From IMG/VR virus record IMGVR_UViG_3300045988_080502, positions 1-64,000 of that record: a stretch of DNA of 64,000 nt; one strand, given 5' to 3'. The translations under genes and the position numbers were made by a program. The notes beneath the pieces were generated by a model. It searched no databases, had not been told where the DNA came from, and saw only the letters and a list, made by a program, of their open reading frames with translations. The first letter of the stretch is position 1; each line of letters begins with the position of its first letter. The stretch is from a virus. This document shows positions 17,150-17,226 of this stretch, piece after piece.

Positions 17150-17226
17150 TGGTACTCGAGGTGAGACTCGAACTCACAAACATCAAGGTTTGAGCTTGAC
17201 GGCTATACCAATTAGCCCACTCGAGC
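17150..17226 (-). tRNA. tRNA anticodon CAA (Leu codon UUG) with class-I short variable arm
   Basis: Perfect cloverleaf. Loop cuCAAac, 5-nt variable region, A73, G1-U72. Leu-like D-arm but no long V-arm. Confidence 0.6.

Follow-up and report, generated by a model that had tools for sequence, protein, structure and literature searches.

Two tRNA genes in the tRNA array of a large phage genome are type I tRNA-Leu genes, each with a complete cloverleaf and a 5-nt variable region, and both are very probably functional, phage-encoded leucine isoacceptors charged by the host's leucyl-tRNA synthetase (LeuRS). The window (the whole stretch analyzed, 64 kb, 37% GC, with genes mostly on the minus strand) carries them at the following positions, and both were found with ARAGORN, with the Rfam tRNA model and with a leucine-body covariance model (R1).

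17150..17226, minus strand, type I tRNA-Leu(CAA), codon UUG (ARAGORN, Rfam, R1)
36227..36303, minus strand, type I tRNA-Leu(UAG), codons CUA/CUG (ARAGORN, Rfam, R1)

Each gene was called by ARAGORN at 77 nt including an encoded CCA. Rfam RF00005 scored the CAA gene at 59.8 bits (E = 7.6e-11) and the UAG gene at 56.2 bits (E = 7.4e-10), in both cases over the full model and at about twice the gathering threshold (29). Both tRNAs have a 7-bp acceptor stem, a 7-nt anticodon loop with U33 and the leucine anticodon (CAA or UAG) at positions 34-36, the T loop GTTCGA, and a D arm made of a 3-bp stem and an 11-nt loop. The CAA tRNA has the acceptor stem GCUCGAG/CUCGAGU with G1.U72, discriminator A73, the D arm GGC-UAAUUGGUAUA-GCC (the gene can alternatively be drawn with a 4-bp D stem that includes U13-A22), the anticodon loop CUCAAAC and the variable region UGUUU. 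For the UAG tRNA, the acceptor stem is GUUCUCG/CGGGAAC, the discriminator A73, the D arm GUG-CAAUAGGCAGA-CAC, the anticodon loop UUUAGAA and the variable region AUGUU. U8, A14, A15:U48, G18G19 and A20a are present in both genes, and the UAG gene also carries C13.A22 and A37. The same array has two class II tRNA-Leu genes of 87 nt, and their D arm is nearly identical to that of this pair.

25607..25693, minus strand, class II tRNA-Leu(UAA), 87 nt with a 15-nt variable arm, reading UUA/UUG (ARAGORN; Rfam 55.7 bits; R1 72.1 bits)
35982..36068, minus strand, class II tRNA-Leu(GAG), 87 nt, reading CUU/CUC (ARAGORN; R1 55.5 bits)

The initial annotation, made from the letters and a list of open reading frames, had described class-I cloverleafs with a 5-nt variable region, A73 and Leu-like D-loops, and ARAGORN, Rfam and the sequence bear this description out. 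It had also placed class II tRNA-Leu genes in the same array, UAA at 25607 and GAG at 35981; both are there, the second starting at 35982, one position from where it had been put, and 158 nt separate it from the type I UAG gene. When class-I spacing and a leucine anticodon were required together with a D loop of leucine type, the resulting pattern matched nothing in the window but the CAA and UAG genes, and gave 0 matches in 100 dinucleotide-preserving shuffles of it. The D-loop motif without a spacing constraint was unspecific, as it also matched tRNAs whose stem has 4 bp, among them those for His, Thr and Pro, and the fixed-spacing pattern was therefore used instead.

The array holds 30 tRNA genes by ARAGORN, all of them encoded on the minus strand, from 16.9 to 37.1 kb, and about 34 tRNA or tRNA-like genes in total. 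It adjoins an NAD salvage set (NAMPT, PRPP synthetase, an isochorismatase-family, nicotinamidase-like protein and NAD synthase) and genes for RNA repair or tRNA-related functions (RNA ligase, two metallophosphoesterases, RlaP, a Ro60/TROVE-like protein, a Thg1-like protein and YqeY). A megablast of the 22-kb array against INPHARED returned no related phage, only scattered tRNA matches. In IMG/VR, one contig (L001) was the same phage at 99% identity, at least 80 related contigs of 45-400 kb were found, and an identical Ro60-like protein occurred on 120-145 kb contigs across many metagenome assemblies; relatives of this protein occur in phages of many hosts. The host of the present phage is probably not an actinobacterium, because the genome has 37% GC.

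For leucine identity, the account given in PMC9976931 and in the introduction of PMC6614811 lists A73, A14, A15:U48, G18G19, A20a and the tertiary contacts between D and T loops as determinants for E. coli LeuRS, with the anticodon and the long variable arm dispensable and minimal tRNA-Leu variants without the arm still active. Every one of the listed elements was found in both type I tRNAs when their sequences were read against this list, and judged by its nucleotides the body of both (A73, U8:A14, A15:U48, G18G19, A20a and D arm) is of leucine type. To stand in for isotype-specific models, 35 class II tRNA-Leu genes from distant relatives, their variable arms cut back to 5 nt and their anticodons masked, were made into covariance model R1, which was run over 15-39 kb without filters. 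The type I CAA gene came joint first in the array with the class II UAA gene (both 72.1 bits) and the type I UAG gene third (65.5 bits); the best non-leucine tRNA was a Thr tRNA (60.8 bits), which leaves the UAG gene a small margin of 4.7 bits, and the remaining non-leucine tRNAs scored at most 53.5 bits. With the generic Rfam tRNA model the same two genes ranked 13th and 18th among the tRNA matches. A confident assignment to another amino acid, an outcome that the initial annotation had allowed for, was not obtained, and R1 ranked both genes at the top.

A comparison that masked the anticodon and left out the variable region, made against 464 unique tRNAs from non-identical relatives, gave mostly class II tRNA-Leu as the nearest neighbors of both genes. 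Whole-sequence identity to the other 29 tRNAs of the array (anticodon masked) was about 57-64% to everything and did not discriminate between isotypes; such distances from every member exclude, for both genes, a recent origin by anticodon mutation from another tRNA in the array. Among 540 unique tRNAs of protein-anchored relatives, the D arm with class-I spacing was found in eight, all with leucine anticodons. A scan of IMG/VR that left the anticodon free returned the same contigs as the scan with leucine anticodons, and non-leucine anticodons appeared in only 6 of the 120 matches listed. A73, which the scan pattern does not constrain, was present in 129/129 viral and 102/102 genomic unique sequences among the matches listed. 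In these same 129 viral and 102 genomic sequences, the stems were paired in at least 86% at every position, with several pair types at nearly all of them, and position 13:22 was C.A or G.A, as in class II tRNA-Leu. The CAA tRNA, with U13-A22, differs here from the rest of the type I family. The UAG tRNA has A37 instead of G37; G37 (as m1G37) is usual in bacterial CUN readers.

In three IMG/VR contigs (L327, L329 and L330), class-I tRNAs with a leucine-type D arm and A73 were seen with the anticodon UUC (Glu). These could be Glu tRNAs with a 3-bp D-stem architecture, or chimeras of identity and anticodon.

Codon meaning was read by comparing window ORFs with related viral loci by tblastn, keeping pairs that were 30-80% identical and tallying the residue opposite each leucine codon.

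TTG, 1502 aligned sites, Leu in the homologue at 65%
CTA, 1114 aligned sites, Leu in the homologue at 60%
TTA, 1273 aligned sites, Leu in the homologue at 66%
CTT, 3529 aligned sites, Leu in the homologue at 66%
CTC, 1536 aligned sites, Leu in the homologue at 60%
CTG, 830 aligned sites, Leu in the homologue at 63%

Residues other than Leu opposite TTG and CTA were mainly I, M, F and V, the usual substitutions of leucine, and at 53% of the TTG and CTA sites the leucine of the homologue was encoded by a different leucine codon. Since TTG and CTA align with Leu as the other leucine codons do, UUG and CUA are read as leucine in this phage, a result that concerns the meaning of the codons and not whether a phage or a host tRNA reads them. 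The alignments of window ORFs to their homologues gave no sign of recoding of UUG or CUN. The four leucine tRNAs of the array (UAA, CAA, GAG and UAG) cover all six leucine codons and overlap at UUG only; the UAG gene is the only CUA/CUG tRNA of the array, and CUA and CUG make up 20% of the leucine codons in window ORFs.

These alignments bear directly on the proposal of the initial annotation that the two tRNAs might carry another identity and change the meaning of UUG and CUN codons, which would make them non-leucine bodies with leucine anticodons and leave UUG and/or CUN reassigned or ambiguous. Known tRNAs that switch identity or reassign codons include Candida tRNA-Ser(CAG), the nematode nev-tRNAs and allo-tRNAs. 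The phage does recode one codon, with TAG as sense in some genes and a tRNA(CUA) present, and the array is rich in unusual tRNAs. The proposal did not hold, with Leu opposite TTG at 65% and opposite CTA at 60% of sites, within the 60-66% of leucine codons overall and with a leucine-type spectrum of substitutions (I, M, F, V). The tRNA bodies carry the leucine identity elements and A73, R1 puts both genes at the top, a class II tRNA-Leu(CAA) occupies the same genomic slot in relatives, and no other isotype among the 540 related-phage tRNAs shares the architecture. Body and anticodon are thus both of leucine type, the codons align with Leu, and a place among identity-switched tRNAs was rejected; such a switch appears largely refuted by the codon alignments and is now extremely improbable. 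For annotation, both genes are simply tRNA-Leu, and there is no ground to suspect recoding of UUG or CUN.

TAG was separately noted as an apparent sense codon in some window genes. Read through its 11 in-frame TAGs, 60798-61913 (plus strand) matches the sigma factor phrog_5767 over nearly its full length, and 61920-63089 (plus strand), with 8 TAGs, matches phrog_3314 when read through; the GC skew flips at the location of these TAG-rich plus-strand genes. The RNA ligase at 6492-7769 (minus strand) has 1 TAG and matches phrog_968 end to end, and the site of this TAG is Glu in 16 closer relatives. A Gln-like tRNA(CUA) with G73 lies in the array at 17979-18054 (minus strand).

The gene order tRNA-Leu(CAA), tRNA(GCA) and Ro60-like gene is kept across relatives, which are named here by their locus numbers. 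In the window and in L001-L005 the slot holds the 77-nt type I tRNA-Leu(CAA), and in L006, L061-L063, L065-L067, L071, L073 and L079 it holds a class II tRNA-Leu(CAA) of 82-87 nt; in L007 and L075 a class II tRNA-Leu(CAA) of 84 nt lies directly upstream of the Ro60-like gene. The acceptor motif GCYCRAG is common to the class II Leu(CAA) genes of the slot, several of which also have G1.U72, and the variable regions of the Leu(CAA) genes in the slot form a series of 15, 12, 11 and 5 nt. In the more distant L017, an independent-looking type I CAA gene has the same G1.U72/A73 end. The shared slot makes the type I CAA gene the positional counterpart of class II tRNA-Leu(CAA), and on the simplest reading it was probably derived from such a gene by shortening of the variable arm. 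The distance between the CAA gene and the Ro60-like gene is 474 nt. A reading of the CAA gene as the tRNA-like module of a Y RNA (YrlA) was rejected, as it is a full tRNA with an anticodon arm and CCA; Rfam YrlA gave no match at the gathering score within 15-39 kb.

In L004 the CAA gene is identical at 77/77 positions, with flanks that cannot be aligned and a Ro60-like protein that is 80% identical, a pattern that points to strong constraint on the gene. The UAG gene has one substitution in L084; the second protein anchor (37902-39206) gave 4 loci only, so the synteny of the UAG gene could be traced in close relatives only. Conservation of this kind is hard to reconcile with decay, in which the two would be non-functional class II tRNA-Leu pseudogenes with the variable arm deleted. 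Degenerate tRNA-like elements do occur in the array (36905-36978, 33651-33719, 26226-26285 and 25504-25588), and the type I tRNA-Leu of Streptomyces is not charged by E. coli LeuRS. Both genes nevertheless have perfect cloverleaves with mid-range Rfam scores, an encoded CCA and every tertiary-pair position intact; the CAA gene is 100% conserved amid diverged flanks, the UAG gene is the sole CUA/CUG reader of an otherwise complete set, and the architecture, with A73 invariant and compensatory changes in the stems, recurs in over 200 independent sequences. On the scores, the intact stems and the island of conservation at the CAA gene, assignment to tRNA pseudogenes or remnants was rejected, and decay is very improbable. 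Rejection by covariance models as pseudogenes, which had been raised at the outset, did not occur, and the models accepted both genes.

The architecture was found to be widespread. At least 120 viral contigs with type I tRNA-Leu architecture were recovered from IMG/VR by the pattern scan, and among the matches listed 138 tRNAs were confirmed by ARAGORN, with all six leucine anticodons in use. The same scan of bacterial genomes gave at least 120 loci, and among the matches listed ARAGORN called 119 as tRNA-Leu of 73-78 nt. About 67 of the 80 listed genome records were Actinomycetota, mostly with lone chromosomal genes; other listed matches lay within tRNA arrays from phyla such as Acidobacteriota and Planctomycetota. 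Genera with a single-copy 73-78-nt tRNA-Leu include Mycobacterium, Nocardia, Corynebacterium and Bifidobacterium.

Annotated tRNA-Leu genes of cultured phages belong to the same kind. The CAA tRNA of the window is 81-82% identical end to end to tRNA-Leu of Mycobacterium phage Wildcat (genes 113/114, UAG and CAA) and its relatives EniyanLRS and Cosmo, and 76% identical to tRNA-Leu(UAG) of Cellulophaga phage phi19:1. ARAGORN called the genes of the Wildcat group and of phi19:1 as type I with anticodons UAG or CAA. They resemble the present pair as genes of phage tRNA arrays, 73-75 nt long, with the same D arm, A73 and leucine anticodons; they differ in belonging to other phage families and hosts, and the records annotate them plainly as tRNA-Leu, with neither comment nor experiment. 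Cellulophaga, the host of phi19:1, belongs to the Bacteroidota. The phages with type I tRNA-Leu thus include some with non-actinobacterial hosts, phi19:1 and probably this gut-type phage.

Nearly all bacterial tRNA-Leu are type II (PMC6614811). The biochemical precedent is Streptomyces coelicolor, whose single LeuRS leucylates type I tRNA-Leu(CAA) in vitro at about half the efficiency of type II (kcat/Km 6.25 vs 14.2), whereas E. coli LeuRS is unable to charge it (Fan et al., 2019, NAR 47:6369, PMC6614811). In the view of the same authors, no prokaryotic LeuRS other than the S. coelicolor enzyme (ScoLeuRS) has been shown to charge both types (PMC6614811). The phage tRNAs share with the type I tRNA-Leu of S. 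coelicolor and other Actinomycetota the 5-nt variable loop, a leucine anticodon (CAA, UAA and UAG predominate), U8:A14, G18G19, A73 and a D arm whose 3-bp stem bears an 11-nt loop. Unlike those chromosomal genes, the present ones are encoded by a 37%-GC phage from gut-style metagenomes. Their variable loops are U-rich (UGUUU and AUGUU, with U48), whereas Streptomyces has ACAGC and Actinomycetota commonly NNAGU, and the CAA gene has U13-A22, unlike the actinobacterial type I genes; of all these, only the Streptomyces tRNA has been leucylated in experiment. At position 48 the Streptomyces tRNA has C48, and the phage tRNAs have A15:U48, as used by E. coli LeuRS, a difference that is at most suggestive of a bearing on LeuRS acceptance.

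A short-variable-loop tRNA-Leu(TAG) has also been noted in a mycobacterial tRNA gene cluster (PMC6582537). That gene likewise sits within a multi-tRNA cluster, with a long-armed housekeeping isoacceptor, but its setting is chromosomal, on a probably mobile element of Mycobacterium, whereas the present pair lies in a phage genome whose tRNA and tRNA-like genes number about 34. Animal mitochondrial type I tRNA-Leu also lack the long variable arm and have A73 and A14 as leucine determinants (PMC9976931); they have weakened D/T-loop interactions and a dedicated LeuRS, whereas the phage tRNAs have canonical elbows (G18G19 and a GTTCRA T loop). In the literature searched, no discussion of type I tRNA-Leu specifically in phages was found, and the term was met only in PMC6614811. 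The view of the initial annotation that class-I Leu tRNAs are unusual in bacteria is therefore overstated: they break the textbook rule, but S. coelicolor, the mycobacterial cluster, the bacterial loci, the viral contigs and the cultured phages show that they are not new. The phage pair is type I tRNA-Leu of a kind already known from Streptomyces and also present in many other phages, and with viral contigs and bacterial loci each numbering at least 120, short-arm tRNA-Leu is far wider in distribution than one biochemical study suggests.

If expressed, the two tRNAs would be expected to work as follows. The parts read by bacterial LeuRS are kept (A73, U8:A14, A15:U48, G18G19, A20a, the D arm and a standard T loop), and the only missing part is the long variable arm, which E. 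coli-type LeuRS does not need. During infection, LeuRS of the host would leucylate both tRNAs by reading the acceptor end and the elbow and not the arm. The CAA tRNA would then read UUG and the UAG tRNA CUA/CUG, and together with the class II UAA and GAG tRNAs all six leucine codons would be served. No LeuRS-sized ORF was found in the 64-kb window, with or without TAG read-through. Acceptance by LeuRS of the phage's host is an assumption, because E. coli LeuRS failed on the Streptomyces tRNA and ScoLeuRS is the sole precedent; with at least one E. coli-type LeuRS rejecting that tRNA, charging is the main uncertainty. The same rejection raises the question of which bacterial LeuRS enzymes accept type I tRNA-Leu.

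Why the arm was lost is a further matter, as the loss may be neutral or may help in evading tRNA-directed defenses. AbiEii and MenT3 have been reported to prefer long-arm class II tRNAs, and the two genes might be functional tRNA-Leu whose arm loss was selected as an escape from toxins (MenT3/AbiEii-type nucleotidyltransferases) that recognize the class II arm, leucine being the one class II tRNA whose synthetase tolerates losing it. RNA repair and counter-defense genes flank the array (RNA ligase, RlaP, Ro60-like, Thg1-like, phosphoesterases and NAD salvage), arm loss is repeated across many phage lineages, and among the class II isotypes of related phages short forms are common for leucine only (15/66 vs 1/48 for serine). 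Yet the array keeps two tRNA-Leu, three tRNA-Ser, a Tyr-like class II tRNA and a tRNA(GCA), all with long arms; actinobacterial chromosomes have type I tRNA-Leu as ordinary single genes, which makes a phage-specific pressure unnecessary; no toxin acting on this phage's host is known; and neutral loss, with LeuRS imposing no constraint, fits equally well. Selection by such toxins is accordingly rated as unlikely, and so is the broader proposal, that arm stripping is a phage adaptation which hides the supply of leucine tRNA from arm-selecting toxins or processing enzymes (MenT3/AbiEii-like). On that broader proposal, LeuRS of non-actinobacterial gut bacteria would also accept type I tRNA-Leu, contrary to the view that this is a peculiarity of Streptomyces LeuRS.

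Several other elements of the array were noted. At 16920-17006 (minus strand), a tRNA has the GCA anticodon and U73, both marks of cysteine, yet it is class II in shape: its variable arm is 15 nt long, and an 11-nt loop closes a D stem of 3 bp. The Rfam tRNA model scored it at 54.6 bits. In relatives the syntenic tRNA(GCA) is 71-77 nt or 79-87 nt long, and 11 unique long-arm 'Cys' tRNAs occur in the related-phage set. The class II tRNA-like gene at 25504-25588 (minus strand) has a GUA (Tyr) anticodon, A73 and CCA, with a D loop that lacks GG and the T loop UGCGAUU; it was found by R1 only (27.8 bits) and missed by ARAGORN and by Rfam at the gathering score, and no other tRNA-Tyr was called in the array. 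A 117-nt Rfam tRNA match at 25779-25895 (minus strand, 49.8 bits) carries roughly 42 nt of inserted sequence within its anticodon arm, and ARAGORN in intron mode called it as Lys(CUU) with an intron of uncertain placement. The array gave no tRNA-Asp call at all.

A third 'tRNA-Leu(CAA)' call at 36905-36978 (minus strand, 74 nt) is unlike the type I pair, with a Glu/Asp-like D arm, no CCA, an acceptor mismatch A4.C69 and, in the anticodon arm, either a poorly paired stem or a loop of 8 nt (ACUCAAAG); it scored 49.7 bits with Rfam and only 36.1 with R1, and is conserved in L081/L082. Two tRNA-like elements, at 33651-33719 and 26226-26285 (both minus strand), were seen with R1 only (38.3 and 25.4 bits), and the first of these combines an 11-nt D loop on a 3-bp stem with A73, CCA and what may be a CUC anticodon, while its variable region is nearly absent. 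A phage tmRNA lies within the array at 28263-28583 (minus strand; Rfam RF00023, 76.8 bits over the full model, no ARAGORN call).

The gene block at 27-16676 (minus strand) runs in the order Thg1-like, metallophosphoesterase, NAD synthase, NAMPT, YqeY, PRPP synthetase, isochorismatase-family protein, RNA ligase, RNase T-like exonuclease, second metallophosphoesterase, RlaP, vault-like ORF and Ro60/TROVE-like. The vault-like ORF of this block encodes a major-vault-protein-like product of 813 aa with MVP shoulder and repeat domains, and a PARG-like ORF was seen at 58291-59121.
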